A DNA stretch of 64,000 nucleotides. It comes from Psammoneis japonica. Lineage: Eukaryota. The stretch spans positions 1-64,000 of the forward strand of contig QPGO01000216.1 of the NCBI GenBank assembly GCA_008632985.1. Direction: 5' to 3'. The position numbers were made by a program, and so were the translations under genes. This document shows, one piece after another, positions 11,301 to 40,689 of the stretch. The notes under the pieces are model-generated. The model ran no database searches and was not told the origin of the DNA. It worked only from the letters and a program-made list of their open reading frames with translations. How positions within the stretch are numbered: position 1 is the stretch's first letter; every line of letters starts with the position of its first letter.

Positions 11301-11586
11301 GCAAGGAGAACTGGATTTTGCGCCAACTGTCAGTTGTAAAGTGCCCTCCTTTGGTTTCCCAGATTTTGGTGGCGGATGTTTTTGTTCTGAGTTTCTACAT
11401 GAATTTGCGCAAAATTGTGGTTGACGATGTTCCGCTGTCGAGGAGAACGCGCGGAGGCTTGTTTTTCGCTTTTCCCAATGAGGCATTCACATGAGCGACG
11501 ATTGCTGGACTAGTGTGAGTTATTTTGGCCCTTTTTCCGGGCTTCCTGACATCCAGTGACGCGCGAGACTCCTCTTGCGGTGCGAG
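8387..11586 (-). pseudogene. pol: Gypsy pol (protease, RT, RNase H, integrase), frameshifted and TA-mutated
   Basis: LDSG protease; RLPMG-like/VRTCIDN RT; DVSKSQLGAV RNase H; HLLHPG..C..C and DRGSEF integrase. Confidence 0.92.
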
Positions 11587-13135
11587 TCATTCCTCAGAAT
11601 CACTGCGCGTCAATTTTTCAAACTGACAATTTTTCTTGTCAAGAGCATCAGAGTCAGAATCATTGCTCTTGCACTTTCCATCTTTGTTCGAAGAGCTCGC
11701 CTTGAGTGTTTTCTGAACTGCCTGGACTGCCATGGCGTTCAACTCTTCTTTGCGAGCGGCGTTGTCATTGTCGCTACGCGACCACGTGCGATTGCCATTT
11801 GAACGGCGGACGTGTTCCAGCTCTAGGTGGGACCTCGCACTGCTGAACTGTGACACAATTATTTTTTATCATCCGTCGTATGTTTCGCACGCACATTTCT
11901 ACGTGTTCTGTTGTAAAAAATTGTTCCACACTGCCTGTTTTGCAAAGCCAAAGGCTTTCTGTTATCTGCACTTGTGTCAATAAAAATGCACTGGGTGTGT
12001 TCTTTAATGTCTAAAGAATGTACCCGGGCACACTGCATGTGTTGTGCTTCAAGTGTGGAGGAGGAGATACGTTCGCAAAATTGCCTCTTTTTCTGTTGGC
12101 GATCATTCACATGTCCATCGCTCAATGATTTTACTGCGGAGCTCGCACGTAGAATTCTACGGGCCCAATGTCACAAAAAGTCCCACCTAGGACTGGAACC
12201 CGTCGGCATCGTTTTGGATCACGTTCAGTGTTTCCACGACGTTCTTTCACTGGTTTCTTGATCGACCAGCATCTGTCCGCACCATGAGTGGATTTTTTGC
12301 ATGGAATGCACCACTTGTCGGACTGGGATTTTTCGGTGCCATGTTGGTGACCATTTTTGGAACCAACCATTCTTGGCTTTCGATCCAGCACTGCCACTGG
12401 GATCAGCCTTGGCATGAATGCCATCGAATGTGTCCTCAGCGACCTCCAGGCGCTCCAGAAACTCAACCAACTTGTCGCAAGCATGTTTCAAAATTTCGAA
12501 ACCTTGGACAGTCGACTGACACTGCCACTTTCGAGGTGCAAGATTGAAGAGGATGTCCTTGAGTTCGTCCTCCTCCATCTTCTGATCCTCTGCGAAAAGG
12601 GAGGACAGAACTTGAGGTCTTCGTTGACTTCTTGGACCCAAGCAGCGATTTCGCATGCTTTCATGGACTCTGGCTTCTTGAGATCACGACGCAAGTAACG
12701 TTTCTGAATCTGAAGTGCGTTCTTGGGAAACACATGCTGAGTGAAATGTTGCAGGCATTTCTCGAAGCTTCCTTTGGCAGATTTGTTTTCAACATTCATC
12801 GCCCCATTTTCGAAAGCACACAGAGCATCTCCTTGCAACAACACACGCATGAGACGGAACTTGTCAGATTGCTTCTTGATGTTCTGACCCACTGGAAGTT
12901 GATCGCAGCTCTTTAAAAATTCGATGCACTTGGGAACACCCTGCTTCTTGCAGTGCTCGACATTGACCATGTGGGTGCGACTGTCCTTCTTCTCGGGATG
13001 AAAACACTGCTCCATCTTGAGATGCTGGCTCGGTTTGAGCGTCTTTGGCTCGGAATTCGATTCCAACGGCTGAGGAACGATTTTCTCCTGCCTTGGCGAA
13101 GTCTTGGCGTTAGCAACTTGAGGTGAAAGCTTCAT
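11587..13135 (-). pseudogene. gag: Gypsy gag, interrupted by a MITE and frameshifts
   Basis: Homologous to 19042-20196; CX2CX4HX4C knuckle CIPCKKSTHGADRC. Confidence 0.85.
11809..12204. mobile_element. MITE family M2, copy 1; 4-bp TSD ggcg/ggca
   Basis: TIR gacgtgttccagctctaggtgggac / gtcccacctaggactggaacccgtc; absent from the gag copy at ~19975. Confidence 0.85.
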
Positions 13136-14287
13136 TTTTCGACTTGTCACCTTCTGTGGTGTGCACACACAATGCACTGTGCTCAAAGAACGAGTGCAAA
13201 CGAAAGTAGAATCAAGTGTGAAAAGTGAAAATTATGAGAATTATTTCTGTGCAATCATTTTGGGTTTCTCCGAATGAGTTCTCAATGGCCTAAAGCATTT
13301 GTGCTGTCCCTGCAGACAAGAGGCCTTTCGGAGAATAAGATCGTGACAACAGATTGTCCGGATGCGATTGACATTGACACACAAGATGTCAACATTGTCG
13401 CATGATCGTATTTGCATTTTTCGACATCCGATCAATTCTGTGTGATTGATCTGTCCTTCGCACGAACCCACGATTGACGCACGATTGAAATGCAAACTCA
13501 TCCAACACACAGATGTGAGATGTGCACGTGCATGTCGCACATGACAACGCATGTTGCAGTGGATCAACATTCTTCATAGATGCAGTTGCTTCTTCCTCTT
13601 TGATTTCTTCATTTGCATGGTCCAATGTGATTTCAAGACTGGACATTAAGTCGCGTCTTATGATCACATCACATGGACTTGAAGAAGAATTCTCATCATC
13701 AACACACACTGTTTGAATGTCAGCACGTCTTAAATTCGCACAGTGAGAACTGAATTCGGTGTTTACTGTCAGTTGTAAAGAGCTCACCCTTGGTTTTCCA
13801 AGTTTTTGGTGGCTGATTCTTGTGTTCTCAACTTTTGCACGAATTTGCGTAAAATTGTGGTTGACGATGTTCCGCTGTCGACAGGAACACGCAGATGCTT
13901 GTTTTTCTCCTTCCCCAAGGAAGTGTTCATATAAATGATGACTCCTGGACTAGTGTGAATTATTTCTGCCTTTTTTCTAGGCTTCCTAATGTCCAGTGGA
14001 GCAAACAATTCGTGAACAGACCCAAATTGTTCTTCGGATTCACTCTGGATCATCCGATTAAATTGGCAATTTTCTTCACTGAGGGCATCAGAATCCAATT
14101 CTTTGCCCTTGTGCTCTTTTTCTTTGTTCGAGGAACTCGCTTTGAGCATTTTTTTTTTGAACTGTCTGATCATTCATGACGTTCAACTCTTTTTTGCGAG
14201 CGGCATTTTCGTTGTCACGCCAAGTGCGATTGCCATTTGAACGCGCCGTTTCGGATCACGCTCAATGTGTCCACGGCATTCTTTTGC

Positions 14288-16460
14288 ACTCTTTGTTTAC
14301 CACAGCGACACGCGCGCGTTTTTTTTTTCGTGCCGCGCAACGCAGCACCCAACCAAAAAGACAACCAACATGGCACGTCGCCGTTCCGAGTCATTACAAC
14401 AGATAGCACCCCCATGCCATACGCGGTGATCGTTGACACGGTAAAGTGTATTATGATAGCTTGGTTTGGTTTGTTGTTGCGTTGGCGTTGTTTTTTCACG
14501 TCTTCACTTACCGGATGTCGTATCGGCATTTCTTGCATTGTGTCATGCGCGACCGACCGAAACCCACAGAATCGGTGTTGTCGTTTCGTCGTCTGTAGGA
14601 CGGAATCTGGTGGAATAGCAAACAAATAGGTAAGCATACATCACAATACTGTTGTTCTGTAGTGTCAGATTGTCCTTTTTAGCATTTCATATTCCCTCAG
14701 CTAACCCTTGCTTTTCGTGCTACTGTTTTTTGCTTTTCAGTACGAAATCACGGTCGTTGATGGCATGGGCATGATGGACGTGGATATTGGCAAGCATGTC
14801 TCTATACTTACCTTCAGTTCTCTCGACACTGCCATGGAGGATGCTGATTTGGAGTCCTGGGTGGCTCCTGCAGCCGCTAGTTTACCTGCAGCGCCGTCAA
14901 AATTTTGCGACAGTTTCACCCGTCGCTTCTTGCGCCAATCCGATCAAAGAAAATAAGGCAGGACGGAATCTGGTGGAATTTCAAACAAACAGGTAAGCAT
15001 ACATCACAATGCAATTGTTCTAATTTGTCAGATTGTCCTTTTTCACATTTCACATTCCCTCAGCTAACCCTTGCTTTTTGTGCTACTGTTTCTTGCTTTT
15101 CACAAAGACAACAGAAAGGCACGTCGACGTTCGGAGTCATTACAATCAACTGCACCCCGACACCATACTTGGTGATTGTTAACATGGTAAGGTGTATTAT
15201 GATAGCTTGTATTGGGTTGTTGTTGTGTTTTTGATGCGTTTTCAATTCGTGGTTTCTCACCGGCTCTTATCGGCATTTCTTGCATCGCGACAGGTGCGAC
15301 CGACCGAGGCTGACAGAATCGGTATTGTTGTTTTCGGCTTCCTACTGACAAAATCTGGTGGAATATCAACAAATAGGTAAGCCTACAACACAATGCTGTT
15401 GTTCTGTTGATTATGAAACCCAACAAGGAAACACTAGCTTGTTGCAGTTTAGGATTCGAAAGCAATCCGTCGCCCAGAGTGCCCTATCTTTGACTTTGGA
15501 GACTCGAGTCCTGGAGCCAGCTTGAAAGAAGAAAGCTCGTACATGACTGTGAAATGATAACTCCATGTAGCTAAAAATTAAAGACCTATTACTATATGCT
15601 ATTTGTTGTTGTTGATAAACATGCGTTAGTGCGTAGTGCCGAGAAATAAAAAACATGCTTTAGCGCGTGATGCCGAGGTGTAACATGAAATGCATTGAGC
15701 AATAAATAACAACGGAAGAGACGACAACATAAACTTACTTTGAAAAAAAGCAAACAAAAGCTTGCCTGCATCTATCGCTTTCGCCCCCCCATCCATATTT
15801 CAAATCCAACAGCATCAACACGACAACCGTTTCCAAAAATGTTGTTTCCAAAGGAAGAGCGACTTCTTAAAAAGTGCCAGGTATCCTTGCCATTCCTGTA
15901 GTATCAGCACTGACACCTGAATCCGAGCGACAGGTATTGCTTTGATAGTCTACTGCCACGCCATCAACGGTACTGTACTCTCTATTAATTCTGACGCAAC
16001 AAATGAGCGCAGCCAGAAACACGCGTTAGTGTGTAATGCCAAGACATTGCATGAAATGTGTCGAGTGACAAATAACAACAACGCAAGAGACAGCAATGTA
16101 ACTTACTTTGGTGCTGAAACAAAAGATTACCTGCATCTCTTTCGCCCCCCTTCTATAATTCAAAGCACAATTCATAGTTGTAATGTCTCAAACAGCGGAA
16201 CAACAGTAACGCTTTGAATGCAGTCAAATTGCTGCAGCAGAAGAAGCGGCAACGCCAGGAAGCACATTATTAAATATCAAAAATGCAATTGGACGATAGA
16301 AGACATCACCCACTGTGGTGATTCTGTCACAACGGCGAAGACAGTCACATCCATGAAGGCTTTTTGCGTCGATGTGGTGTGTGGTGTGGTGTGAAAAAAA
16401 TGTGCGTCCGCACGACCGCGCGAAAAAATCCGTAGTAATCCGTAGTGGTAAACAAAGAGT
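14288..16460. mobile_element. 2.2-kb non-autonomous TIR insertion with internal duplications and intron-like segments
   Basis: 16-bp TIR actctttgtttaccac / gtggtaaacaaagagt; absent from the family B copy at ~58670-58720; repeated blocks at 14372/15118 and 14598/14961/15350. Confidence 0.75.
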
Positions 16461-17730
16461 TAATCCGTGATGTGGGTGTTCTTTTTTCAAAGATTAGACC
16501 TTGCATTCACTTTGGATTGTTCAGGTGCCATGCAGGAGACCATTTTTGGAACCAACTTTGGAACCATTTGGTTTTGGAATCAATTCCGTTATCAGAGCCT
16601 GATTTGACATGTTTTGTTGTCATAGACGTCATGAACGACTTCCAAACGACTCAAAACTCAATCAGCTCATCAAGGACAAGTTCCAACAGTTGATTGTTTT
16701 GGACAGTGGACTGATGCTGCCATCCTTGCGGTGCGAGTGATGGCCAATAGCTCATGACTCGGTTTCCCGCTAGATTCAACTTAGAATCGATTGAAGGGTC
16801 GCACAGACTCTCTTCAATGACCTCTTGGGTCTGACAGAGGCTTTCTTGCTGTCAAGCAGCTCCGGTTTCTTCAGATCGTCTTGAAAATAACAACTCTGAT
16901 TCTGAAGTGCAATTCCTGGAAAGACATGAGACAAGAGACTCTTGAGGCACTTTCCAACGGTTCCTTCTAGCTCTTTGGACTCGAGGCTCATTGATTCGGT
17001 CTCTAAAAATTCTGCAATGGTCTCTCCTTGCATGCCAGATGCATTTCTCGGACCTGATCAACTCAAGGCTTGAAATTCTACCCAACCATGACTTGGTGTG
17101 GGCATTTCGATAATGCTGTGCACTTGCAGAGTCCTTGATCCTGAGGTGCTTGAAATGGATCATATTGGAACGAATCCTCTTGTCTTGCAGACGAAAAACA
17201 GGGTTCCATCTTGAGGCACTGCTCGGATTGAGCTGCTTCCGCTCGGAAATCGATTCCAGCAGAACCAACGCATTTCATGCCTGCTCATGGAAGAATTTAC
17301 AAAGGCACATCAGCAAAAATTTTCATTTTCTGTGTTTTTACCTTCTGTGGTGTGTGTGCACAATGCACTGTGCTCGAAGAACGAGCACAAACGAAAGTAG
17401 AATCAAGCATGAAAAGTGAAAATTATGAGATTAAATTTTACTCTGTGATTTTTGGTTTCTCTGAATGAGTTCTCAATGGCCCAAAGCTTCTGCACTGCTT
17501 CTACAGACAAAAGGCCTTTCGGAGAATACATTCGTGACAACAGATTGTCCGGGTGCGATTGCCATTGACACGTAAGATGTCAACATCATCAATCGATCGC
17601 ACTTGCAATTTTCAACATCCAATCAACTCTGTGTGATCATTCTGTCCTTCGCACGCATCCACGACTGTGGTGCGATTGACACATAAATGACACGTGATTG
17701 TGAACATGCATGTGACAGTCGCATGCTGCA

Positions 17731-18630
17731 AAGCTGTTCCAAATGGCCAATCAAGCCCCAAGCTGTGCTTGTTCTGCACTGTGCCATGCTGCAAGTTCAG
17801 ATTTGAAGTGCCATGGGACTGCAAGCCTGCCCTGGCACTTGACAAACGCAATGGCAGCTGCAAGTGGGGAGATGCAACTGACCTTGAGATGACTCAGCTC
17901 AGTGAGCCCAAGGTGTTCCATGACTGCAAACACTGCAAGGACTCTGGTGCCCCAGCAGGACACAAGAAGATTCAGGTGCACCTTGTCTGTGACGTCAAAC
18001 ATGACGGCAGGCACAAGGCACAACTTGCTGCCTGATGGGCACCTCACTGACATGCCCATTGATGGTGTTCACTCTGGTGCAGCATCCCTCTGTGGCCTTT
18101 GAATGATGATCTTCCTGGCTGAACTCAATGAGCTGGAGACATGGGCAACCGACATTGGCAAAATGCCTGCCCAAAAAAGCTGTGACCAAGGAGAAACTGC
18201 ACATCATTGCAGGTTCTGAATTTGGAAGTTTGAAAGGGCACATCCTTGCAATCCATGAGACTCTGTGCAGTCTCCACCACTGTGGTTTCAGGTGACACTG
18301 ATGCTTTGCCAGTTGTTCAAGAGCTGAAGGATTTTTCCTGTGCTGCACTGAACCTGACATTTGGTTGTGCCGGAATGTTCATCGCACTTTCAATTGCATG
18401 ACCCAGCATGCTTGCATGCCCACCAGCACACACCTGAAAAAGGTGTGCAAGTCACCCAACCCGGTTCTCAATGTCCATTGCCATGACAAACCTGTTGCCA
18501 CTGACACGGTGCACTCCGACAACTCCGCCATCGACTCTGGATGTGCCAGCACACAGCTCTTTGTTGGCTTGAAATCCCTCATCACCAATGTGTGCAGCAA
18601 CAAGATGGACAAAGAATTTGTCAGTGCACT
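17731..18630 (+). mobile_element. Copia (CoDi-like) RT 5' fragment joined to an integrase N-terminal fragment
   Basis: KKIQVHLVCDVKHDGRHKA (RT); PVATDTVHSD..AIDSG...QLFVG (integrase). Confidence 0.85.
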
Positions 18631-19041
18631 TGCAACATGCGTTGTCATGCACATCACATGTGTGCATGTCTGTGCATTAAACAAATTTGTGTTCCAATCG
18701 TACGTCAATCGTGGGTTCGTACGAAGGACAGATCAATCACACAGAGTTGATCGGATGTCGAGAATCGCAAATGCGACTGTATGATGATGTTGACATCTCA
18801 TGTGTCAATGTCAATCACACCCAGACAATCTGTTGCATCGCACTCTCCAAAAGGCCTCTTGTCTGTGGGAGCAGTGCAAAAGGTTCAGGCTGTTGAGAAC
18901 CCGTTCGGAGAAACCCAAAATGATTGCGCAGAAATGATCCTCACAATTTTCACTTTTCGAACTTCGTTCTACTTTCGTCCACACTTGTTCTTCGAGCACA
19001 GTGCATTGTGCACACACACCACAGAAGGCAACAAGTTCAAA

Positions 19042-20196
19042 ATGAAGCTTTCACCTCATGTGACCAACACCAAAACTTCGTCAAGGCAGGAGAGAATCGT
19101 TCCTCAACCGTTGGAATCGAATTCTGAGCCGAAGAGCCTCAAACTGAGTCAGTGCCTCAAGATGGAGCAATGTTTTCATCCCGAGAAGAAGGATGGCCGC
19201 ACCTGCACCATCAATGTCGAGCACTGCAAGAAACAGGGTGTCCCCAAATACATTGAATTTCTCAAGAGCTACGATCAACTTCCAGTGGGCCAGAACATCA
19301 GCAAGCAAGCCGATGAGTTCCGTTTCATGCGCATGTCACTACAAGGAGATGCTCTGTGTGCTTTTGAGAATGCGGTGGCGAACATTGAAGATGAATCTAT
19401 GGAAGGAAGCTTCGAAAAATGCCTGCAGCACCTCACGAAGCATGTGTTTCCCAAGAACGCACTTTCGGTTCAGAAACGCTGTTTGCGTAGTGATCTCAAG
19501 AAGCCAGAGTCAACGAAAGCACGCGAAATTGCCGCCTGGGTCCAGGAAGTCAACAAAGACCTCAAGTTCTATCCTCCCTTTGGGAAGGATCAGAAGATCG
19601 AGGAGGACGAGCTCAAGGATGTCCTCTTCAATCTTGCACCTCGAAAGTGGCAGCATCAGTCGACCGTCCAGGGTTTCGAAATTTTGAAACACACCTGTGA
19701 CGAGTTGGTTGAGTTTTTGGAGCGCCCAGAGGTCGCAGAGGATGCATTTGACGGCATCCATGCCAAGGCTGATCCCAGCAGCAGTGCTGGATCAAAAGCC
19801 AAGAGTGGTTCTCAACGTGGTTCCAAAAATGGTCACCAACATGGTGCCGAAAAATCTCAGTCCGAGAAGTGGTGCATTTCATGCGAGAAATCCACTCACA
19901 ACATGGACAAGTGCTGGTCGATTAAAAGACTTGCGAAAGAACACCGTGGGAACTATGAACCCAATCCAAAATGGCGTCATTCAAATGGCAATTGCATGTG
20001 GTCTCGTCGCGATGACGATGATGCCGCTCGCAAAGAAGAGTTGAAAGCTGTGGCGGTCCAAGCAGATCAAAAAATGCTCAAAGCGAGTTCTTTGAACAAC
20101 GACAAGAAGCGCAAGAGCAAAGATCATGACTCTGACACCCTTGACGAGGAGAATTGTCAGTTTGAAAAATTGACGCGCAGCGATTCTGAGGAATGA
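19042..20196 (+). CDS. gag: Gypsy Gag (open frame, heavily substituted)
   Basis: MKLSPH start after the 5' LTR; CISCEKSTHNMDKC zinc knuckle. Confidence 0.85.
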   Translation: MKLSPHVTNTKTSSRQERIVPQPLESNSEPKSLKLSQCLKMEQCFHPEKKDGRTCTINVEHCKKQGVPKYIEFLKSYDQLPVGQNISKQADEFRFMRMSLQGDALCAFENAVANIEDESMEGSFEKCLQHLTKHVFPKNALSVQKRCLRSDLKKPESTKAREIAAWVQEVNKDLKFYPPFGKDQKIEEDELKDVLFNLAPRKWQHQSTVQGFEILKHTCDELVEFLERPEVAEDAFDGIHAKADPSSSAGSKAKSGSQRGSKNGHQHGAEKSQSEKWCISCEKSTHNMDKCWSIKRLAKEHRGNYEPNPKWRHSNGNCMWSRRDDDDAARKEELKAVAVQADQKMLKASSLNNDKKRKSKDHDSDTLDEENCQFEKLTRSDSEE

Positions 20197-23100
20197 CTTG
20201 CACCACAAGAGGAGTCTTGCGCATTGCTGGATGTCAGGAAGCCCGGAAAAAGGGCCAAAACAACTCATGCTAGTCCAGTGGTCGTCGCTCACATGAGTGC
20301 CTCTTTAGGTGAAGCGAAAAACAAGCCTCCACGCATTCTCCTTGACAGCAGAACATCATCAACCATGATTTTGCGCAAATTCACGCGGATGCTCAGAACC
20401 AAAGTGTCCGCCACCAAACTCTGGGAAACCAAAGGAGGGCTCTTTACGACTGACAGTCAATGTAAAATCCAATTCTCCTCACCCGAATTTGACAAACACA
20501 AGATGATTGAAACAACAGTGCATGTTGATGATTCCCCTTCTTCTTTGAGTCGTTATGACATGATCATGGGACGCGACTTAATGTCGAGTCTTGGGACAAT
20601 GTTGGACTTCTCGAATGAAGAGATTAAATGGGAAGATGCAACTGCTCCTGTGAAGAATGTTGACACACTCTTTGATGCCAAAGTTTTTTTAAGTTGATTG
20701 CCGATCATGTTGAGGAATCTCATGCAGTGATTGGTCTTAATGACAGGGTCAATTGGATCCTTGACTCAGACTGTCACCCCGCAAACCTCAATGATGTGAC
20801 AGCAGCAGCCACTCATCTAACTCCTGAAGAGCAGAAGCAGCTAAACCCACTCTTAAAAAGATTTGAAAACCTTTTTGATGGTTCTCCAGGCAAATGGACC
20901 GGGAAACCGGCAGATTTAAAGTTGAAATTGGGCATGAGTTCGTGTCATGCCAAACCATTTCCTGCACCACAAGCCTTGGAGGCAACTGCTCATAAAGAGG
21001 TTGAAAGACTGTGCAAGTCAAAGGTCTTAAGAAAAATAAATTGTTCTGAATGGGCAGCTCCAACCTTTGTTCAACCCAAGAAAAATGGTCGAGTTCGGTT
21101 TCCATCCGACTTTCGTGAGCCAAACAAGAGGTCAAAATGCACTCCGTTTCCTCTGCCCAATGTTCAGGATGTGCTGCAGAAGCTTGAAGGTTTCATGTGT
21201 GCAACATCCCTAGATTTAAACATGGGATGCTGTCACATCGAGCTGATGCCACATGCACGTCGTTTGTGCATGATTGTCATGCCTTGGGGCAAATGTGAGT
21301 GATGTAGACTGCCTGTGGGAATCTGTGGAGCTCCAGACATTTTCCAAGAGCACACGAGTGAGCTCATGGCAGGTCTGGAGTTTGTCAGAACTTATGTTGA
21401 CGACACATTGTGCCTTGCAAAAGGTGATTTTCAAGACCACCTCAAGAAGCTTGAGATGGTGTTTTTACGCCTGGAACAAGCCGGATTGAAGGTCAACGCC
21501 AAAAAGTCCTTTTTTGCTAAACCCGAAGTGGACTGTCCAGGCTTCCACATCACCCGCAATGGCATCAGTCCGATTCCAAAAAAAGTAGAAGCAATTCACG
21601 TGATCGCAACTCCTGAGACTTGCAAGGAATTGCGACGCTTTGTTGGTGTGATCAACTGCCATCAAGACATGTGGCCTCGATGATCTCATGTTTTAGCTCT
21701 TTTAGCCAAACTCACTTCAACACAAGTAAAGTGGCAATGGACCGAAACAGAACAAAAAGCCTTCAAAAATGTGAAGCGCACAATCTCCAAAGATGTGCTG
21801 TTGTCACATCCGAATTTCAATGTGCCCTTTGAGACATGTGCTGATGCGAGCAATTCTCAATTGGGGGCGGTCATTATGCAGAAAAACTGACCAATTGCTT
21901 TCTACAGCCGCAAGCTGAATGGAGCGCATGCGCGTTGTGCTGCAACAGAAAAAGAGCTGTTGTCCACAGTGGAGACGTTAAAAGAGTTCCGAAATGTGCT
22001 GTTCAGCCAACAGATAAATGTGCACACGGATCACAAAAATCTCACACATGAAAATTTCACAACGGACAGAGTCATGCGTTGGCGTCTAACAACAAAAGAG
22101 CACAGTCCCAAAACAACATGCCTTGAGGGCAAGGCGAATGTTGTCACAGATGCGATCAGCCGACTCACTGTGGTGAAAAAAATAGAACCCATGGAAACCC
22201 TCAGCACAGAAGAGTTGGCTGAAAAGGTCCCACCAAAATCCTGCGACAATGTCTTTCTGTTAAATCACAAAGTTCTTGATTGTGAACAAAAGCGGGACAA
22301 AGACATTCTCTCCAAATTGTCAAATGAGACATTTCATGCGAAGACTTTTCGTGGAGGCGAGCAAGACCGGTTGCTCACATGTCACAAGGACAAAATTGTC
22401 ATCCCAAAGACGTTGCAAAAAGCAGTGATAGATTGGCATCATGCGCACCTTCTTCACCCTGGCACAAATCGAACAGAAGAAACAATCTCACAACACTTGT
22501 TCTCCAAATTGTCAAATGAGACATTTCATGCGAAGACTTTTCATGGAGGTGAGCGAGACCAGTTGCTCATGTGTCACAAGGATAAAATCATTGTTCCAAA
22601 GACGTCACAAAAAGCAGTGATGGATTGGTGCTGTGTCACACGCACCTTCTCCATCCTGGCATAAATCGAACAGAAGAGACAATCTCACAACACCTGTGGT
22701 GGTCCACCTTGCGTGAAGACATACGAAAATAAGTGTCGAGATGTGAGACGTGCCAGAAATTCAAAAAGAAACACAAGAAATGTGGACATTTGCCTCCCAA
22801 GTGCGCAGAATCAGTGCCATGGGAACGACTGTGTGTGGATCTTGTTGGGCCATACAAAATGCGTTGTAAGGGAAAGAAAGAACCCCCAGTCCTGAAATGT
22901 TTGACAATGATTGATCCGGCAACCGGATGGTTTGAAGTTGTGGAAATCCCAAATGAGGAATCCACAACTGTGGCTGGACTGTTAGAACGAACGTGGTCAA
23001 GTAGACATCCTTGGCCATTGTTAGTTGCATGTGACCGTGGAAGAGAGTTCATCGGACACCAATTTAAAGACATGGTGCAAGATGATTATGGCATTAAAGT

Positions 23101-24533
23101 CAAGCCTATAACTGCACGAAATCCACAAGCAAACGCAATCATTGAACGCGTACATCAATTGCTCGGAAATGTGATCCGTACACTTGATTTGCAACACACA
23201 CCTCTGAATGCTGAGGATCCCTTCGCTGGAATATTATCAGCAGTAGCATTTGCAGTACGTTCTACGTATCATACTACAGTACTACGCAAGCTACACCTGG
23301 ACAATTAGACCCCGTCCAAACTGGATCGTACTTGCGTACTATCGTACTTGAGTATAGCCTGCTTTATGACGTCACGAGCCATAAAAAGGGAGTCGTGTCC
23401 AAACTGCATCGTACTTGCGTACATGAGTACTATCATACCCAAAAAATTAGTCGAGTTACTCATTTCTGACATCACCGGAGCGCGTATCGAGTGGATGCGA
23501 TACAAGTCGCCATGGCGATGTGTGGTTGTTTTTGACAGCTTCTTTCGATTTTACCACTTTATAAGTAACACCAATCGATAATATGAAGCGGATATGATAT
23601 GTTACGGCAAGAAAATGTTAAAATATTGTGCACTTGTTGCTGAAATAGACCTTTTGTATTCAAAGGAATTTTTTCTGTCTGTTGCATCATACAAAGTCAA
23701 TGCATAAGGTGGCTAAACTAGATCTGTTAGGCCCAACAACAATCTTATCGACTAATTTAGATACGAAGGATTTAATGGGTTTATTTGTATGTGGTGTGAC
23801 TTTAGAGTAAGGGTCGATATGGCCCGAGAAGAATGTGCAGAAACGTTCAAATGAAAAGTTTCTGAAATCACCCCGTAAGTCTAACGTTATTTCACTGAAC
23901 AAAACAAGAAACCACACCTACACACTAAGTAAAATATGGCGGTTCTAATAAGGTTACTTTATCATCATAAGGTAAAACTTTGATGCCGCTGTGGGCCGTC
24001 ATCTTCATTCGTCGTGATGCTGTTTCTCGTGCGAGCGGGGGTATGATGTCAGGGGTATGATGTCGCGAAGGAACAGACAGGGCCGGTGGTCTCTGTTCCT
24101 GACGCGAGATCGTATGGCCTAAATATTGTAGAATCATAGGGCACATAACCCTAAAAAAGTCGCAAAGCGCCTTTTTTAGGCCATACTCAAGTACGAAAGT
24201 ACGCAAGTACGATCCAGTTTGGACGGGGTCTTAGTCTTTAACAGAGACATGGTATTTAACGTCCAACATGTCGCAGACTGGAAATTAATCCAGCAGCGAA
24301 AGCAAGAAATTATAAATAAAAATAACGCTCGAGAGAATGCTCGACGTACTCCTTATACTGTACGTACAGAGTAGGAGAGAAGATACTACTCGAAAAAGAC
24401 TCGCAGAAATTAGAACAGCCCTATTGGACCGTATGTAATAACAACGGTACACACTGATGGCACAGTACAGATCAAACGCGGTGACGTCATTGACACTATC
24501 AATATCCGTCGGATAATACCGTTTAACGACTGA
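20197..24533 (+). pseudogene. pol: Gypsy pol with frameshifts, an internal ~193-bp tandem duplication and a MITE insertion
   Basis: ILLDS protease; SEWAAP, DFRE, VRTYVDD RT; RNase H; integrase core; GPY-type C-terminus. Confidence 0.92.
23308..24230. mobile_element. PIF/Harbinger-like MITE, 923 bp, 53-bp TIRs, TSD TTA
   Basis: TIR gaccccgtccaaactggatcgtacttgcgtact... with 2 mismatches; tta at 23305-23307 and 24231-24233; removal restores GQLVF. Confidence 0.93.
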
Positions 24534-24939
24534 CTCTAATGTGCAATTAGGGAGGCGAATGCAATATTCGTTGTTATGTACGTTATATATATGTATATCT
24601 ATATATTTAATAAATTTATATTCCAATCGTACGTCAATCGTGGGTTCGTACGAAGGACAGATCAATCACACAGAGTTGATCGGATGTCGAGAATCGCAAA
24701 TGCGACTGTACGATGATGTTGACATCTTATGTGTCAACATCAATCGTATCCAGACAATCTGTTGTCACGATCGTATTCTCCGAAAGGCCTTTTGTCTGTA
24801 GGAGCAGTACAAAAGGTTTTAGGCCATTGAGGACCCGTTCGGAGAAACCCAAAATGATTGTGCAGAAACAATCCTCACAGTTTTCACTTTTCGAACTTCG
24901 TTCTACTTTCGTTTACACTCATTCTTCGAGCATGGTGCA

Positions 24940-27900
24940 CACTCAAAGACAACATTTGCAACTGTGGTGCCCCACCCAAGCTTGTCAGCCATCGTGCTCA
25001 AATCAAGATCAGCAACAAGGTCCTTGGCATCCTCAGTGCTCTCTTCATGTCCAGTTGGCAAAGCAAGCCCCACCAAGAACAGCACCAGAACTTTGCTGAA
25101 CACCGCCACCAAACCATGAAGAACATGGCCAACACCATCATGGATTGCTTTGGCTCCCAGGCCCGCACCCACTGGCACACCCCCACTGAAGTGCTGTCTG
25201 GATCCACTCCCGGCATCAGCCCCCTTCTCCATTTTCAATGGAGGGAACCCAAGCACCACCATCTGGATGATTCCAACTGGCCATCTGAATCCCGCAATTG
25301 TTGGCATTGCTGAACATGAGGGCCATCAAACAATGACCAAGATTCTCTCTTACAACACCCAGAAGATTCTTTGTCGGTCTGGCATCCGCTCTGCCACTGG
25401 TGACCCGTCAATGCACAATTTGCATCTTGACACTCTTGATGGGGAGTCTGCTGCACCCATCATTGAATCCCACCATGACTCCAAGGATTTGCTGGATTCA
25501 TCAGATGGGGAGGAGATCAGGATGCCCAAGATGCCAGTGTTCAACCCCGAGGATGTCGTTGGACTCACCTTCCTCATGAAGCCATGACAGAATGGACAGC
25601 ACTGCAGAGCCCGCATCATCAAAGCCATTGAGGATCATGGCTTTGAGATCAGTGACAACGCGGAACTTGTTCAGTTCATTTGTTCAGTCAAAAACAATGA
25701 ATGAGAGGAAATCCTTGCCTGCAATGACATCATCCATCACATGGAGCAAGAAGAAGATGACACCACCATCTGGAAATTCTGGCACATTGTGTGGCATGAA
25801 GGACCGTTGAGACCTCACGACCCCTCCTGGAAAGGCTCAAGCTGCAACATCATGCTTGAATGGGAAAGTGGGGAGATCATGTCTGAGCCCCTTGCCATCA
25901 TTGCCAAGGATGATCCCGTCACCTGTGCCATCTGCGCATGAGAGCACGGCCTCCTCAAAACTGAAGGATGGAAGCATTTCTGCAAAATGGCTCTGCACCA
26001 GAAGAAGCTGTTCCACATGGCCAACCAAGCCAAACTGTGCTCATTTTGCACCACTCATTTGTGGGCATGAAGTGTGTCACATGACTGCAAGCATGCCTTG
26101 GCCCTTGACAAGCACAATGGCAACTGCAATTGGGGAGACACAACAGACCTTGAGACAACTCAATGAGTGTGAGGTCTTCCACGATTGTGGACACCTCAAG
26201 GACTCCAGTGCTCCAGCAGAACACAAGACGAGATTTGAGTGCAGCTGGTCTGTGATGTCAAACACAACGGCAGGCACAAATCATGACTTGTTGCAGATGG
26301 ACACCTCACCGACATGCCCATCGACAGCATCCATTCTGGTGCAGTGTCTCTTTGCAGTCTCCGAATGATGATCTTCCCAGCTGAATTCAACAAGTTGGAG
26401 ATGTGGGTAAATGACATTGGCAAAGCCTGCCTGGAAGCCATGACCAAGGAGAAACTGCATATCATTGCAGGTCCTGAATTTGGAAGTTTGGAAGGACACA
26501 TCTTTGCAATCCACGAGGCTCTGTACAGTCTCCGCAGCTCTGGTCTCAGGTGGCACAAACGCTTTGCCGATTGTCTGCAAGCTGAGGGATTCTTCCTGTG
26601 CAGCGCCCAACCCAACATTTGGTTGCGCCAGAATGGTGACCATTGTGAATGTGTGGCAGTGCATGCAGATGACCTGGCCTTTGCTGTGAAAGATCCCCAG
26701 GCCTTTGTCGACACTCTCACAGAGAAATGTAATTTCAAGCTCAGGGGCACTGGATCACTGGCATTCCACCTTGGTTGCAACTTCTCTCGTGACTCAGATG
26801 GCATGCTGTGCATGGCTCCTTGCAAGCACATTGAGCGCATGGTCAAGAATTGCTCACGCCTTTTGGGGGAGAAGCCTTGCACCAATGTGCTGTCCCCTCT
26901 TGAAAAGGAAGACCACCCCAAGCTTGACAACTCCGAAAGGAAGACCACCCCAAGCTTGACAACTCCGAACTGCTAGAGCCTGAGGGCATTCACCAATTCC
27001 AGTCACATCCCTGGTTGGTTCCCTGCAATGGGGCTGTGTCACTCAGATGCACAGACATCACTGTGGCTGTCATGTCCCTCTCCAGCTTCTGTGCAGCACC
27101 CCAACAGGGCCATTTGGATCACGCCAAATGTGTCTGCAGATTCTTGTCCAAGATGTGACATGGTGCCCTGCGAGTGCACACCAAGGAACCCGACTGTTCA
27201 GACCTCCCCAATCCTGTGTGCAACTGGGCTCAAACTGCACATGGTGATGTGAAGGAACCAATCCCTGAAGACACACCTGAGCCTCTTGGTTGGCAAATTT
27301 CATCACCACAGCCCATTGTTTTGATGTGAACTTGCTCCATTGCATGCTCACTGCATGCTCCATCACATGCATCACTCATTTCCTCAACAAGTTTCTGGCT
27401 GATTGGTTCTCCAAGAAACAAGCTGCAGTCAAGAGTGTGACCTGTGGATCTGAGTTTGTCGCCACTGGGGACACATGTAGAACAGATCATTGATCTGTGC
27501 TTCACATTGCATCACCTTGGCATCCTGACTCACTGCACATGTCACATGTTCGGGGACAACAAGTCGGTTGTGGACAGTGCCACCATCCCACACTCCAAGT
27601 TGCAAGAGAGACATGCTGCCCTCTTGTCCCATCATGTGCACGAGGTGATTGGCTCCGGTTTCCCTAAGCTCCACTTTGTCAAAGGTTCCCGCAACCCTGC
27701 TGACATCCTCAGCAAACACTGGGGCTGCTCCCAGGTTTGGAACCTCCTGTGTCCTCTCATGTTTTGGAATTTTGATCCTGAGGCCTTCAGCAAATCTGAT
27801 TTTGAATCCATTGCTGTGGACTCCTCAAGCAAACTGGGGAGTGACAGGATTTGAACAAGATCTTGGTTTGTTTTGGTTTGTTGCACACAATTGCATGTGC

Positions 27901-29144: not shown

Positions 29145-29660
29145 TTAGGGCGACAGTGGCGGAGGAGGTGGCGGTGGTGGAGGGCTCAGGAGGCGGAAAA
29201 TTGCAATCAGCGAGGGTAAAGCCATTGAAAAGAATGTTTTGGCCACTGCAGTTGGGACCACAATCAGATGTGCACTGCTTGGTGAAGCAGCAAGTGTCGC
29301 TGTTTGGTTGGTTTCTGGGACCGGGACACACGGGATCAAAACCATTGACTGGCGTCGGCCCATTTCCATCTGTGAAATGGCACGAAATCTCCTGGTTGCT
29401 GTTGCCGGAGACAAGGGGATCACAATTTCCCGGGTCGACAGTCGTTCCTTGAAGAACAACAAAATTGTAGCAATCGCAGGCGTGTTGCCGGCATTCCGCA
29501 TCAGTGGGCGGTGTGGGAGGCGGTGGTGGTGGCGGTGGCAGAGGAGGAGGCGGTGGCGGAGGAGGAGGTGGCGGCGGCGGAGGAGGTGGCAGAGGAGGAG
29601 GATGAGGAGGCGGTGGCGGAGGAGGAGGTGGCGGAGGAGGAGGCGGCGGCGCGGTCCGAA
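29145..29660 (-). pseudogene. Poly-Pro plus Cys-rich extracellular protein segment (exon or paralogue remnant; apparent frameshift near its 3' end)
   Basis: Long Pro run with varied codons, then CRQHACDCY...CCFTKQCTSDCGPNC; terminal poly-Pro in a different frame. Confidence 0.55.
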
Positions 29661-30124
29661 GTCGGAAGAGAGTGAACGGGTCATTTGTTGTTTTGCGTTT
29701 CTGATCACAGTTGTCTCTCCATGGATGTTCAATGTGTGTGCCAATTCGTTGTGTTGCATTGTAGTTAGCGTGGTACACCCAGAAAAGCACATTGTCTGTG
29801 CTTGGGTTTTTTGTCGCCCAGCTGAAGCTACGAGTAACCTTACCGGTGCCAGCAGGGCCCTACTAGAGCGAAAAAAAAAAAAATTGTAGTCTACACTTCA
29901 AAAGATAAAGTACTTGTAAGTTCTCCACCTCGACTTTCCGTTTCACGCAAGCTGGAGCTTTCAAGCAGTAGCGTGCACCCAAACTTTGAAATACACCGTG
30001 TGCAATAAACAAAAAATCGGCGCGACATTGAGTAGATTGGTTGTTCGTGCTTCTACTGTATGGTGAATCATCACTCTGAAATTAAAAAAACAATCATGCA
30101 AATCACTAACTGAAGAACTAAGTG

Positions 30125-31631
30125 TTAAGGAGGGCAGTCATCTATTGGACTGGTATTTGGCGTAGCCCTGGGAGGGTTGACGCACACCTGCGGTGCAGAC
30201 GTTGGTCCGTAGGTTGCTGAAGTGGTGCAATCGAAGCCTCCGTCACAACAAAGAGGATCACCAGAATTTTGGCAAATTAGGCCAGTCGTGGCTGCCGCCT
30301 TAACGTCTTCACACGAAGGCATGTTTTCGATCACAACATCTGAAATGACACAATAGGTCGAAGGATACTCTGGGTTGTTTCCTATAGTTTCGCCAGAGAT
30401 ACAACCCACGCCACATTCGGTGCTGCAGGTTACTGTGGCCTGAGCTGCCCAAGCATCCTTGACGCATCCGCTAGTTGCGGGGCAACATTTGGCGCGGTTG
30501 TTACTTAACCCCGTCATTGCCTTATAGGCGTCATCGCAAAGAGCTTTGTCGGCGTCACTGCANNNNNNNNNNNNNNNNNNNNNNNNNNNNNNNNNNNNNN
30601 NNNNNNNNNNNNNNNNNNNNNNNNNNNNNNNNNNNNNNNNNNNNNNNNNNNNNNNNNNNNNNNNNNNNNNNNNNNNNNNNNNNNNNNNNNNNNNNNNNNN
30701 NNNNNNNNNNNNNNNNNNNNNNNNNNNNNNNNNNNNNNNNNNNNNNNNNNNNNNNNNNNNNNNNNNNNNNNNNNNNNNNNNNNNNNNNNNNNNNNNNNNN
30801 NNNNNNNNNNNNNNNNNNNNNNNNNNNNNNNNNNNNNNNNNNNNNNNNNNNNNNNNNNNNNNNNNNNNNNNNNNNNNNNNNNNNNNNNNNNNNNNNNNNN
30901 NNNNNNNNNNNNNNNNNNNNNNNNNNNNNNNNNNNNNNNNNNNNNNNNNNNNNNNNNNNNNNNNNNNNNNNNNNNNNNNNNNNNNNNNNNNNNNNNNNNN
31001 NNNNNNNNNNNNNNNNNNNNNNNNNNNNNNNNNNNNNNNNNNNNNNNNNNNNNNNNNNNNNNNNNNNNNNNNNNNNNNNNNNNNNNNNNNNNNNNNNNNN
31101 NNNNNNNNNNNNNNNNNNNNNNNNNNNNNNNNNNNNNNNNNNNNNNNNNNNNNNNNNNNNNNNNNNNNNNNNNNNNNNNNNNNNNNNNNNNNNNNNNNNN
31201 NNNNNNNNNNNNNNNNNNNNNNNNNNNNNNNNNNNNNNNNNNNNNNNNNNNNNNNNNNNNNNNNNNNNNNNNNATCCTCCCTTGCCCTTGCTGCTTGAGC
31301 TGCTGGGGCTTGATCCTCCCTTGCCCTTGCTGCTTGAACTGCTGCTGGAGCTTAATCCTCCCTTGCCCTTGCTGCAGGAGCTGCTACTGGAGCTCGATCC
31401 TCCCTTGCCCTTGCTGCTCGAACTCGGAAGTTTATAGTCGTCAGTCGAGGAACGGCTTCGGTCCTTACGCTTGCTGTTGGGAGTGGGTTCTATCAGGAGC
31501 TTTCTCTCTCCATGTCGGAGATGATGTCGGTGCAAGCGTCCGTGAACCTCAGATCTGTAGAGAGAATCTTCCGCTGCCGCTTGCAGCAGTGCAGAAATCA
31601 GCAGCAGGAGTGCTTTAACGCGCATCATCAT
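30125..31631 (-). CDS. Secreted silaffin/cingulin-like cell-wall protein: signal peptide, RKL site, (S)n-KGKGG repeats, probable Cys-rich C-terminus across the gap
   Basis: MRVKALLLLISALLQAAA signal; ERKL; at least 4 poly-Ser/KGKGG units; open Cys-rich frame 30562-30125. The join across the Ns is assumed. Confidence 0.7.
30563..31273. other. Assembly gap (711 N)
   Basis: Run of n. Confidence 1.
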
Positions 31632-31997
31632 TGTCTCAGGTCACTGGAACCACACTGCATAAAGAGTTGTGCTTGTTAGCAGGCTGTGAACAAACTCTTG
31701 CTGCAAAGCGGACTATCGTGGTGAATCTTCTCGCGCTGGACAAAATTGTGAGACTTTGGTGACGAACTTTGCGGATTTAGTCGTGTAGCTTTACATTTAG
31801 TCGTGTAGCTTTACATGGAGTCTTGTAACTGACTACAGGGGATCAGGTTTGGCTGCATCGCAGCCCCCTGGAGGTGACACGTGTTTCAGTGGTTATTAGG
31901 GCCCTTGGCATGAACCAGGGAGAGCACAAAAGATGCTGCCGCCTTAACCTACTTAAAATAGATGCTACACACACACACACACACACAGAGTCTTGCA

Positions 31998-32962
31998 AGG
32001 ACTGAGGCGAGCGCGCGGCTACACGAAGTTGTCAGTCCCGCCCACTCGTGACTCAGTGCATTTCTACGGTGAAAATTGCGTGGGAATCCTTGTTCTTTTA
32101 TACGTGAATTAACACCTTTAAGGATGGATCGTCCAGATGAGGTCTGTTTACGCGCGAGCTCGCATTTTTTGGAAAAAACCCGGATTTCTCGTGCTGGATG
32201 CGCGGGCTCGCCAACAAAATATTTTCAGCGACAGGTCGAACTTTGTCCCTTCGAAAGACATCATAGAAGGTGTTGGCGATGGTTGTGACCATGCGCGATC
32301 TTTAGCTTAATGACTGCAGACATGTCTGTGGCCAGTCAAACGCCAATTGTCGGCATTTCCTGGAAAGTTGTGGCTTGTCTCCCAAAGCAGTGCGATTTTG
32401 GCAAAAAACAGCGGTTTGTCGAACACAACAACTGCACCGAATCCGACAATTGGCATTTGAAGGTTGAAATGTGTAGTTCACATGTGGGTCTAACAGCCCT
32501 GATGGGGGCTGGACACACTCATAAGTGTTTGGGGGTGCTCAGAGGCATCGCAAAATGACACGGGCGAAGTGCGGGGAAATTGCAAAATCACGAGCCAATT
32601 AAAAAATGCCTCATCTAGATGATCCATCCTCAAGCGTTAGATGCAGTTACTTTGATGAATTTCGCCAAAATGGTGCCAAGCACTGCATTGCGTGCAAATC
32701 CACGGCACTCCGTGCGATTCGTGTTTTGTTTCGGATGACTTCCAATTCGTCAAAGCAACTGCATGCAATGCCTGAAATAGTTGGTTCAACTGTGAACGAA
32801 CAAAGAATGTACATCAGGTGCAGTTCACATTGCAGTTAGCGGAAGTTGTCTGACCGTTTTTGTCATCGTCGGATTCCTGCACAATTTTCACCGCAGAAAT
32901 GCACTGAGTCACGAGTGGGTGGGACTGACAACTTTGTGTGGCCGCGCGCTCGCCTCAGTCCT
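31998..32962. mobile_element. MITE with ~90-bp TIRs; probable TA TSD (ca/ta); hosts MITE M1
   Basis: aggactgaggcgagcgcgcggc...gggaatcc is inverted at 32871-32962. Confidence 0.85.
32122..32629. mobile_element. MITE family M1, copy 2; TSD ttaa/tcaa
   Basis: Reverse complement of 3630-4140. Confidence 0.9.
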
Positions 32963-35021: not shown

Positions 35022-35357
35022 CTCGCACCCTTCCAGACAACATGCCAACTGACCATCCACCTACAACATCGACATCGTGCCTAGAAGTTGACAAAAACCC
35101 ACCACCACCCCGAAAAAGGCGCCACAACTATTTCAAATTTCGCGCGCACAGCCTACAATCTTGCGCGCGACAACTACCCCTTATTCGTACGACTGCATTA
35201 ACTATATAATACCCACTACTTTTTGTCTTAAGGAAAAACGACACGAATCGGAGTCTTTCGGGAATAAATAATGTCTTCGAGCTTTTGGAATTCAGTCGTG
35301 TTGGCGAGAATGACTTTTAATCAACGTATATACTATATAACAGCTGTTTCACTAAAA

Positions 35358-35450
35358 CGACTAAAAACTGGCGGGAAAGGCTGGTTAGTAGTCGTGCAGG
35401 CGACTAAAACTGGCGGGCAACGGCTGGTTAGTCGTGCAGGCGACCAAAAC
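35358..35450. repeat. Short tandem repeat, ~41-bp unit, about 2.3 copies
   Basis: cgactaaaactggcggg...ggctggttagtcgtgcagg repeated. Confidence 0.7.
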
Positions 35451-40660: not shown

Positions 40661-40689
40661 CCAAGACGGCTCCTTGTGCGGGGTCCCCG

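Follow-up and report, generated by a model that had tools for sequence, protein, structure and literature searches.

The two LTRs of a retrotransposon are identical at insertion, and a Ty3/gypsy element in the window analyzed here, a stretch of 64,000 nucleotides, raises the question of what made its own pair 12% different, on which molecule, and when. The element, A1, occupies 18631–24939 on the + strand, with a 375-nt 5′ LTR (18631–19005) and a 380-nt 3′ LTR (24560–24939), both with TG..CA termini and the latter preceded by a purine tract. Its CACT target-site duplication is intact, as an earlier note on this DNA had stated: the left copy (18627–18630) ends the flank ...GTGCACT directly before the LTR start TGCAAC, and at the right copy (24940–24943) ...GGTGCA is followed by CACTCAAAG. 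In the internal region (19006–24559), a gag sequence carrying a zinc knuckle is followed by the RT, RNase H and integrase domains, and the Pfam matches fall in the same order (RVT_1, 3.1e-10; RT_RNaseH, 1e-15; rve, 9.7e-11), with Integrase_H2C2 at 21.9 bits, under the cut-off of 25.5. Direct TG..CA LTRs, a target duplication and the RT/RNase H/integrase order place A1 with the Ty3/gypsy elements, and its internal region is disrupted by frameshifts and by a nested insertion considered below.

Alignment of the two LTRs gives 375 aligned columns, 5 gap columns and 46 substitutions. The earlier note had claimed that many of the differences fall at TA sites, quoting three sequence pairs, all of which are found as written. 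This holds for the single transitions, where 22 of 34 lie in TA context against 20.4% of transition-capable sites (binomial p = 2.6e-8), but it does not extend to 14 of the 46 differences, which belong to other classes (5 CpG, 7 other transitions and 2 transversions); the remaining 10 columns are five sites at which one copy reads TG and the other CA. All 22 single TA-class changes sit in the 5′ LTR, 13 as CA and 9 as TG, and so both outcomes co-occur in one copy as had been reported. The 5′ LTR is hypermutated, retaining 5 TA, and the 3′ LTR is nearly unmutated, retaining 27, so that mutated informative sites number 27 of 31 in the former and 5 of 31 in the latter (Fisher p = 2.4e-8). The TG-vs-CA doubles could in principle also stem from CpG. 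Two of the five such sites in A1 have CA in each of the eight other family copies, and one site has CG in three copies, so not every double is cleanly TA-derived.

By itself the raw LTR comparison is silent on direction, and repeat-induced point mutation (RIP) is a known source of CA/TG-vs-TA differences. A RIP-like change of C to T at CpA/TpG could have made the TAs of the 3′ LTR, with the TA-poor state being the original one. The coding sequence decides between these directions. At 33 codons where tyrosine is conserved among 56 long homologues, A1 has 11 TGY (Cys), 8 CAY (His), 1 TGA, 6 TAY (Tyr) and 7 other codons, and its sibling A2 at 35 such codons has 17 TGY, 9 CAY, 2 TAY and 7 other. 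The N-terminal frame of the A1 RT contains no tyrosine, compared to 3.4% in 62 homologues, and the eight positions with Tyr in at least half of the homologues read Cys six times, Phe once and Ala once. Within the element, positions of conserved tyrosine carry Cys or His codons where TA is scarce and Tyr codons where it is abundant; the direction of change is therefore TA to TG/CA, and the enrichment described above is at ancestral TA, as had been proposed. Moreover, the ratio of observed to expected TpA, which falls as low as 0.05 in the window, is at 0.05–0.1 incompatible with encoding a working polymerase, and TA, TG and CA are all seen at the same dinucleotide among copies, with TG and CA each one step from TA and two steps from each other. 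The reverse direction is accordingly very improbable.

The strand and the timing of these changes bear on the molecule that was altered. Window-wide, 1138 sites have a TA-bearing paralogue, and they now read CA at 418, TG at 417, TA at 283 and CG at 20. Relative to the sense strand the TG:CA counts are 61:59 in A1 and 105:91 in A2, and none of the 10 element segments has a sense-strand bias. Timing can be followed in A2 (7977–13558, − strand; LTRs 13173–13558 and 7977–8360; target duplication CCAC), which is 82–87% identical to A1 and nested in a related gypsy element, B1 (5199–17730, − strand; LTRs 17364–17730 and 5199–5565; target duplication GCTT). Using the nearly intact 3′ LTR of A1 as an ancestral proxy with 27 TA sites, both A2 LTRs are mutated at 21, with identical outcomes at 11 of these and different ones at 10, while a single LTR is mutated at 4 sites and the remaining 2 sites fall in none of these classes. 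Agreement at 11 of 21 doubly mutated sites, against 16 of 40 in comparisons of non-sister LTRs, points to independent hits after integration and not to editing of RNA or cDNA.

A-to-G changes made before integration, whether by ADAR-like editing of the element RNA, in cDNA, or by reverse-transcriptase error, and then copied into the genome, would share several features with these data. Clustered A-to-G transitions are found in retroelements, ADARs prefer a 5′ T/U neighbor, which the 5′ T preference seen here resembles, and A1 and A2 have Cys in common at five consecutive conserved-Tyr RT codons (20772–21231 and 11013–10555, respectively). However, ADAR or APOBEC editing before integration affects one strand only and is inherited by both LTRs. 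Although the clustering of transitions in retrotransposon copies is alike, both strands are used equally here and the outcomes in sister LTRs are independent, with the A1 LTRs differing at 22 sites and showing TG and CA in one copy. In addition, the A1 flanks at 18378–18630 and 24940–25168, which have no paralogue in the window, contain no TA. The argument of the earlier note against ADAR editing and RT error, that these would be strand-biased and largely shared by both LTRs, is borne out in A1 and A2, where both expectations fail. Sister LTRs thus supply an internally controlled timing argument: independent hits on both strands since insertion exclude RNA editing as well as errors of reverse transcription, and they place the process on chromosomal DNA. 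We regard editing before integration as having a negligible chance of explaining the pattern.

This argument could be misled if the two A1 LTRs were not true sisters, having been brought together from different elements by recombination, by 3′ gene conversion from a younger copy, or by an assembly join. The TA-retaining zone of A1 begins inside the element, at about 23000, and holds an insertion missing from its siblings, and the family is plentiful in the reads, with a summed contig depth in the thousands that favors mis-joins. Nevertheless, the CACT duplication is present on both sides of A1, and four further pairs with matching target duplications show the same difference classes, namely A2, B1, the copia element C (38565–44024, + strand; LTRs 38565–38809 and 43781–44024; TTGAC) and element D (52037–55308, + strand; LTRs 52037–52416 and 54929–55308; ATGG). 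A short-read unitig crosses the 5′ junction with 0 differences; none of the listed read pieces covers the whole A1 stretch, and the 3′ junction is not among the 8 listed of 1490 pieces. These read data are contigs and unitigs of one sequencing run, probably of the assembly's own sample. The A2 test needs only that the 3′ LTR of A1 be little mutated, not that the A1 pair be genuine, and mutation of the 5′ LTR at its present location would stand even if the 3′ part had been converted. A chimera of two elements is therefore highly unlikely, and the interpretation in the earlier note, of mutation acting after integration and on both DNA strands, is upheld at the points on which it might have failed, since TA enrichment is present, strand asymmetry is absent and the target duplications are intact.

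The distribution of TA along the locus is regional. From 18631 to 23000 the fraction TA/(TA+TG+CA) is 0.00–0.15, and across a graded boundary at about 22980–23230 it rises to 0.35–0.53 in the zone from 23000 to 24939, which comprises the final stretch of the integrase gene, the nested insertion and most of the 3′ LTR, and which keeps TA where A2 and the third sibling, A3, read TG or CA. The 22-to-0 lopsidedness of the A1 LTRs arises because this zone takes in most of the 3′ LTR. Directly beyond the TA-rich 3′ LTR, the right flank (24940–25350) has no TA in 411 bp, with successive TA positions at 24914 and 25351, which implies that this DNA had already been mutated when A1 inserted. Domain boundaries are at most 250 bp wide and one of them coincides with an insertion junction. 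Loss of TA goes together with loss of CpG (Spearman 0.62 over 157 bins).

The nested insertion (23308–24230) is 923 bp long with 54-nt terminal inverted repeats that are 96% complementary. It is missing from A2 and A3, and comparison with their uninterrupted sequence shows a TTA duplication on either side, at 23305–23307 and from 24231; one read contig connects 23306 to 24254 without it. Terminal inverted repeats together with a 3-bp TTA/TAA duplication are hallmarks of PIF/Harbinger-type miniature inverted-repeat elements (MITEs), and we note as a lead from these sequence features that the insertion, a non-autonomous DNA transposon, may belong to that superfamily. It is multi-copy yet unmutated. 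Inverted repeats were also sought in two TA-normal islands of the window, 34900–36300 and 52500–53900, and none was found; these islands are therefore not MITE-like inserts.

We consider the most likely explanation, with a probability of about 0.8, to be a TA-erasing process at the level of DNA that acted after A1 integrated and changed TpA to TpG or CpA on either strand, regionally and in episodes. Following integration of the Ty3/gypsy element, such a process would have converted TpA in A1 to TpG or CpA through A:T to G:C transitions of adenine, using either strand about equally and nearly independently from site to site, and its action would be regional and episodic rather than clock-like. 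It would have brought the 5′ 4.4 kb of A1, including the 5′ LTR, near to saturation, in flanking DNA that had presumably been saturated before A1 arrived, and would so far have left the final 1.9 kb largely untouched, with most of the 3′ LTR, while ordinary CpG decay proceeded alongside in the same domains. The LTRs would now differ by 12% because the 5′ part is saturated and most of the 3′ part is spared. The data presented here establish the direction of change, its TpA specificity, the involvement of both strands, its occurrence after integration, its regional nature and the inflated LTR ages.

Context and rate further characterize the process. It favors a pyrimidine after TA (TpApY), and a few neighboring non-TpA T>C changes are also present. 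Clustering is weak. Adjacent events fall on the same strand in 436 of 801 cases (54.4%), a value reached in 5 out of 2000 plain shuffles and in 10 out of 2000 simulations that took context into account. The strands of neighboring events agree at a frequency of 0.53 for distances up to 10 bp and of 0.50 farther apart; long strand-coordinated tracts in saturated copies, considered as a candidate, were dropped given the concordance of 0.50 beyond 10 bp. Undirected context rates from 92 paralogue alignments show a modest excess at T[A/G] (0.153) and [C/T]A (0.130) relative to A[A/G] (0.093) and G[A/G] (0.062), on which we do not rely because most TA sites have already changed in both copies. Each TA site has received an estimated 0.9–2.0 hits, and with a background of 0.004–0.02 substitutions per site in each lineage the excess is about 40- to 310-fold. 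Together with equal use of the strands and the width of the boundaries, the following pyrimidine, the weak clustering and this rate are usable parameters for the process.

The same signature is known from the chlorarachniophyte Bigelowiella natans, in which integrated giant-virus and virophage DNA undergoes TpA hypermutation (Mettrop et al., bioRxiv 10.64898/2026.01.13.699255). According to that preprint, nearly all changes are A>G or T>C and every one lies at TpA, giving TpG or CpA by strand; they affect integrated nuclear DNA locally and irregularly in time, leaving TpA-poor clusters rich in CpA and TpG, with reverse-transcriptase domains enriched among the TpA-poor genes; and the signature is seen live in mutation-accumulation lines (bioRxiv 10.64898/2026.01.13.699255). 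The A:T to G:C transitions, their limitation to TpA, the use of both strands and the action on integrated DNA are all found here. In contrast, the targets in the present case are LTR retrotransposons and their surroundings, probably in a diatom, the evidence is comparative (sister LTRs, paralogues and Tyr codons) rather than from mutation-accumulation lines, and the observed/expected TpA ratio reaches 0.05, versus 0.45 given for the viral region in the preprint. The signature is thereby extended from a chlorarachniophyte to LTR retrotransposons of a probable diatom, with much deeper depletion. The word diatom does not occur in the text of the preprint (bioRxiv 10.64898/2026.01.13.699255), and a literature search, with most subscription journals outside its reach, returned no account of a TA-erasing process in diatoms; the published record of the signature consists only of this one 2026 preprint on B. 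natans.

Whether an enzyme is responsible bears on the chemistry that might underlie these transitions. An enzyme that deaminates DNA adenine to inosine, aimed at transposons or silenced chromatin and acting as a genome defense, has in our judgment roughly even odds. Alternatively, TA-specific DNA damage such as a photoproduct, or replication errors at a step prone to slippage, could be repaired inefficiently where chromatin is silenced and methylated, and so build up there. The correlated loss of TA and CpG is as expected if both track chromatin state; no enzyme is named by the present analysis or in the B. natans preprint (bioRxiv 10.64898/2026.01.13.699255). We consider this alternative unlikely, given the estimated rate excess and near-saturation, the narrow boundaries with one at an insertion junction, and the restriction to transitions, with CG at just 20 of the 1138 sites. 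Furthermore, the B. natans process is on in only some laboratory lines, as described in the preprint, pointing to regulation and not passive damage (bioRxiv 10.64898/2026.01.13.699255).

Among other systems that alter transposon sequences, comparison with RIP is instructive, although the direction of change is opposite. As known from Neurospora and other ascomycetes, RIP acts after integration and on both strands, makes dinucleotide-specific transitions that inactivate transposons in domains, and inflates LTR divergence, all of which apply here. The chemistry is opposite as well: in RIP, C becomes T at CpA, which creates TpA and stop codons, whereas the present process changes A to G at TpA, erasing TpA, removing TAA and TAG stops and raising G+C. 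The RIP hallmark of C:G to T:A change at CpA is absent. RIP is triggered by sequence duplication above a length threshold and depends on a RID/DNMT4-type enzyme and a premeiotic stage. With regard to such a trigger, flanks that lack any paralogue within the window have been mutated throughout, and the multi-copy MITE is unmutated. CpG decay likewise yields TG and CA in the same domains but cannot remove TA. PMC9998398 mentions RIP, describes a diatom DNMT4 that is RID-related with its function unassigned, and reports CpG decay via cytosine methylation in diatom transposons.

These comparisons invite the tentative suggestion, which we hold at somewhat less than even odds, that diatoms, and perhaps the stramenopile-alveolate-rhizarian group, may have a dedicated defense resembling RIP in reverse, in which a chromatin- or repeat-directed enzyme would deaminate adenine in TpA, preferably TpApY, on either strand of nuclear DNA in episodic bursts of kilobase scale. 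Such a defense would rid transposons of their Tyr codons and of signals that contain TA while ordinary sites barely change and, as a side effect, would make the mutated DNA immune to transposons that require TA-containing target sites.

An important consequence concerns the dating of insertions. We tabulated LTR pairs by difference class for A1, A2, B1, C, D and a repeat pair, E (44316–46467; copies 44316–44867 and 45918–46467), for which a target duplication was looked for and none found, leaving it doubtful whether E is an LTR pair; the pair B2 (49640 and 57485) was left out, its second copy being truncated and its target duplication unreadable. The window otherwise contains no recognizable host gene, and among its ten long frames the copia RT of element C (RVT_2, 1.4e-20) was the sole Pfam match, the other nine having no family. 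Enrichment of single TA-vs-TG/CA differences is weak or nil outside A1 (A2, p = 0.036; E, 0.037; B1, 0.16; D, 0.50; C, 0.55), and the signal in these five pairs is carried by TG-vs-CA doubles, 41 sites in all, whose ancestral state was checked directly at 10 sites in A2 and rests on a CpG-decay model for the others. Modeled CpG decay explains 0.6–2.6 doubles per pair in those other pairs, and decay estimated from counts of intact and singly decayed CpG accounts for 0.2–2.6 of the 4–12 TG-vs-CA sites per pair; the CpG class makes up 59 of 242 LTR differences over all pairs. Masking of TA, TG, CA and CG sites cuts LTR divergence 3- to 10-fold, in agreement with the earlier statement that LTR-divergence dating is unreliable here, and in such genomes ages would be overestimated by the same factor and the order of nested elements could be inverted unless these sites are masked. 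After masking, A2 is again younger than B1, matching its nesting within that element, a comparison of 3 versus 5 differences.

A1, at 18631–24939, is a single Ty3/gypsy LTR retrotransposon whose LTRs (18631–19005 and 24560–24939) were found as direct repeats and then aligned. Each LTR begins with TG and ends with CA, a purine tract lies upstream of the 3′ LTR, and the interior encodes gag with a zinc knuckle followed, in Ty3/gypsy order, by RVT_1 (3.1e-10), RT_RNaseH (1e-15) and rve (9.7e-11). In the RNase H-integrase linker of A1, some 192 bp are duplicated in tandem (22309–22500 and 22501–22697, 85% identity), which leaves a protein stretch present twice. The 64-kb window is a nest of LTR-type elements throughout, with matching target duplications at A1 (CACT), its minus-strand sibling A2 (7977–13558, 82–87% identity to A1, CCAC), the gypsy-related host B1 in which A2 is nested (5199–17730, GCTT), the copia element C (38565–44024, RVT_2 at 1.4e-20, TTGAC) and a further element, D (52037–55308, ATGG); for the repeat pair E (44316–46467) a duplication was looked for and none was read. 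Pfam recognized no host gene among ten long frames of the window. An assembly gap of 711 N occupies 30563–31273.

Several lines of evidence bear on whether these sequences are genuine. Short-read unitigs from X1, the only sequencing run found with contigs or unitigs matching the window, match hypermutated stretches with 0 differences, and one spans the 5′ junction of A1 (18431–18719). Together with CACT at both ends of the element, this upholds the argument of the earlier note against a chimera of two elements. X1 is probably the assembly's own sample, and so its matches exclude only assembly-level error. The region 18000–26000 has 12 listed positions at which window and X1 contigs disagree: two are CpG-class and five are TA versus TG or CA (19571, 20445, 21394, 22792 and 23114), one of these five in the YVDD tyrosine codon. 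As weak evidence, they are compatible with near-identical copies or another allele that mutated independently.

The two LTRs of A1 align over 375 columns, with 5 gap columns and 46 substitutions: 22 with TA in one copy and TG or CA in the other, 10 columns (5 sites) with TG against CA, 5 of CpG class, 7 other transitions and 2 transversions. The three sequence pairs quoted previously occur in this alignment exactly as quoted, and the claim that the differences fall at TA holds as an enrichment (22/34 single transitions versus 20.4% of transition-capable sites; binomial p = 2.6e-8), but not for the 14 of 46 that lie outside the TA class. At all 22 single TA-class sites it is the 5′ LTR that carries the changed state, 13 as CA and 9 as TG; both products therefore do occur together, as had been proposed, and both strands were hit within one copy. 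Three of the seven other transitions are T>C changes directly beside TA>CA (columns 187–189, 214–216 and 353–354; two TAT to CAC and one TTTA to TCCA), and these may be collateral hits on neighboring adenines of the same strand.

The 3′ LTR of A1 retains 27 TA and has none of the 22 one-sided changes, and so was taken as a near-ancestral copy of the LTR family against which the two LTRs of A2 could be scored. At these 27 sites the A2 sisters have both changed with the same outcome at 11 and with different outcomes at 10, show a change in only one copy at 4 and are otherwise different at 2. Agreement between sisters is no higher than between non-sister copies (16/40 for the A1 5′ LTR versus either A2 LTR), matching independent, random-strand hits after integration. 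The opposite would be expected if element RNA or cDNA had been edited, or if the master copy had itself been mutated beforehand, and the proposal that mutation followed integration and was not ADAR editing of the RNA is borne out. Sites with TG against CA dominate the other pairs (12 in A2, 9 in B1, 4 in C, 12 in D and 4 in E), and the counts of intact and singly decayed CpG lead to an expectation of only 0.2–2.6 such sites per pair from CpG decay. Given the A2 result, these doubles appear to derive mostly from ancestral TA; the exceptions among the five in A1 are two with CA in all eight other copies and one with CG in three.

Across the window the observed/expected ratio is 0.30 for TpA, 1.50 for CpA and 1.55 for TpG, and TpA falls to 0.05 in some 2-kb blocks. 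Depletion alone is mute on loss versus gain, and protein conservation was used instead. The N-terminal RT frame of A1 (208 aa) contains 0 Tyr versus 3.4% in 62 homologues, and of 8 positions with Tyr in at least half of the homologues, six are Cys in A1, one is Phe and one is Ala. Conserved-Tyr codons were then located by tblastn of 56 pol homologues against the window (103 hits, 59 with at least 850 aa, three dropped for having <3% Tyr). The 33 such codons of A1 read TGY (Cys) in 11 cases, CAY (His) in 8, TAY (Tyr) in 6, TGA in 1 and other in 7; the 35 of A2 comprise 17 TGY, 9 CAY, 2 TAY, 0 TGA and 7 other, and the catalytic tyrosine of its YVDD motif is TGC (Cys). Half of the six tyrosines kept by A1 lie within or beside its TA-rich 3′ zone. 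Because conserved Tyr codons now specify Cys or His, the direction of change was TA to TG or CA; the reverse, RIP-like direction, in which TA is gained, fails against these codons.

From 184 self-alignments of the window we obtained 1138 dinucleotide sites at which a paralogue is still TA, and these now read CA (418), TG (417), TA (283) or CG (20). The equality of TG and CA agrees with the earlier claim that both DNA strands are hit, and no sense-strand bias is seen in any of ten element segments (61:59 in A1, 105:91 in A2). The mutated fraction depends on the base after TA, being higher before a pyrimidine (0.91 at ATAT, 0.88 at GTAC) than before a purine (0.54 at TTAA, 0.42 at CTAG). Where the context is asymmetric, the favored adenine is the one with a pyrimidine on its 3′ side, so that the target motif looks like T-A-Y. 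Neighboring events share a strand in 436 of 801 cases, slightly above chance (reached in 5 of 2000 shuffles), and this excess is limited to about 10 bp.

The process is regional and episodic rather than clock-like. Up to about 23000, A1 has almost no TA; beyond about 23230, the remainder of the element is TA-normal. Of 31 sites that are informative, 27 have changed in the 5′ LTR and 5 in the 3′ LTR (Fisher p = 2.4e-8), and thus two LTRs of the same age, 5.9 kb apart, received very unequal doses. The right flank has 0 TA over 411 bp beginning exactly at the insertion junction; it must already have been saturated when A1 inserted, so that two episodes or more are implied for this locus. Within the spared zone, in the integrase gene, lies a non-autonomous DNA transposon of 923 bp (23308–24230), whose inverted ends measure 54 nt (96% complementary) and which is flanked by duplicated TTA (23305–23307 and 24231–24233). 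It is absent from A2 and from another sibling, A3, its TA content is normal, and its X1 contig depth is about 170–180 versus 27–42 for single-copy-looking neighbors. The coincidence may be explained by a TTA-requiring transposon landing only where TA survives, and hypermutated DNA may be closed to such an element. Further TA-normal islands occur at 1–1600, 14401–16400, 29601–32400, 35201–36000, 52801–53600 and 57601–60800; the last is a less mutated gypsy copy with many Tyr codons kept, and no inverted repeats were found in the two of about 800 bp (35201–36000 and 52801–53600). Depletion of TA and CpG is correlated (Spearman 0.62, 157 bins), a link between the process and DNA that is silenced and methylated.

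An important consequence is that LTR dating fails in such hypermutated DNA, as had been suspected. With masking of all columns that belong to TA, TG, CA or CG in one LTR or the other, Jukes-Cantor distances drop 3.2- to 10.5-fold in six pairs: from 0.134 to 0.042 (A1), 0.151 to 0.018 (A2), 0.131 to 0.030 (B1), 0.073 to 0.009 (C), 0.129 to 0.012 (D) and 0.073 to 0.015 (E). Raw distances rank A2 as older than B1 despite its being nested in that host, and masking gives the required order, on small counts of 3 versus 5 differences. Together the six pairs have 242 differences, 203 in the TA, TG/CA-double or CpG classes and 39 ordinary ones. Each TA site has taken an estimated 0.9–2.0 hits, about 40- to 310-fold above the background of 0.004–0.02 changes per site per lineage.

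The signature in the window is the same as that reported in a preprint for mutation-accumulation lines of Bigelowiella natans, where almost all changes are A>G or T>C and every one falls at TpA of integrated DNA, clustered locally and switched on irregularly (bioRxiv 10.64898/2026.01.13.699255). There the targets are integrated giant virus and virophage, reverse-transcriptase domains are enriched among TpA-poor genes, and an adenosine deaminase is the proposed agent. Our search of the accessible literature found no description of a TA-erasing process in diatoms; PMC9998398 describes diatom transposons as CpG-methylated and DNMT4 as RID-related. A weak pointer to a diatom source is a neighbor cluster in the Atlas, whose few labelled members are Bacillariophyta. 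The process resembles RIP in being post-integration, dinucleotide-specific, active on both strands and lethal to transposons, but its chemistry is inverted. To the known signature the present analysis adds a timing test on sister LTRs that draws its ancestral proxy from the window itself, strand and context parameters, a domain boundary inside an LTR pair and the failure of LTR dating.

Very long open frames occur on both strands, with 44 of at least 80 aa in 9 kb (18000–27000), because TAA and TAG have been lost, and gene finders would over-call such TA-erased DNA. One frame of 901 aa (61212–63917) has no Pfam family.
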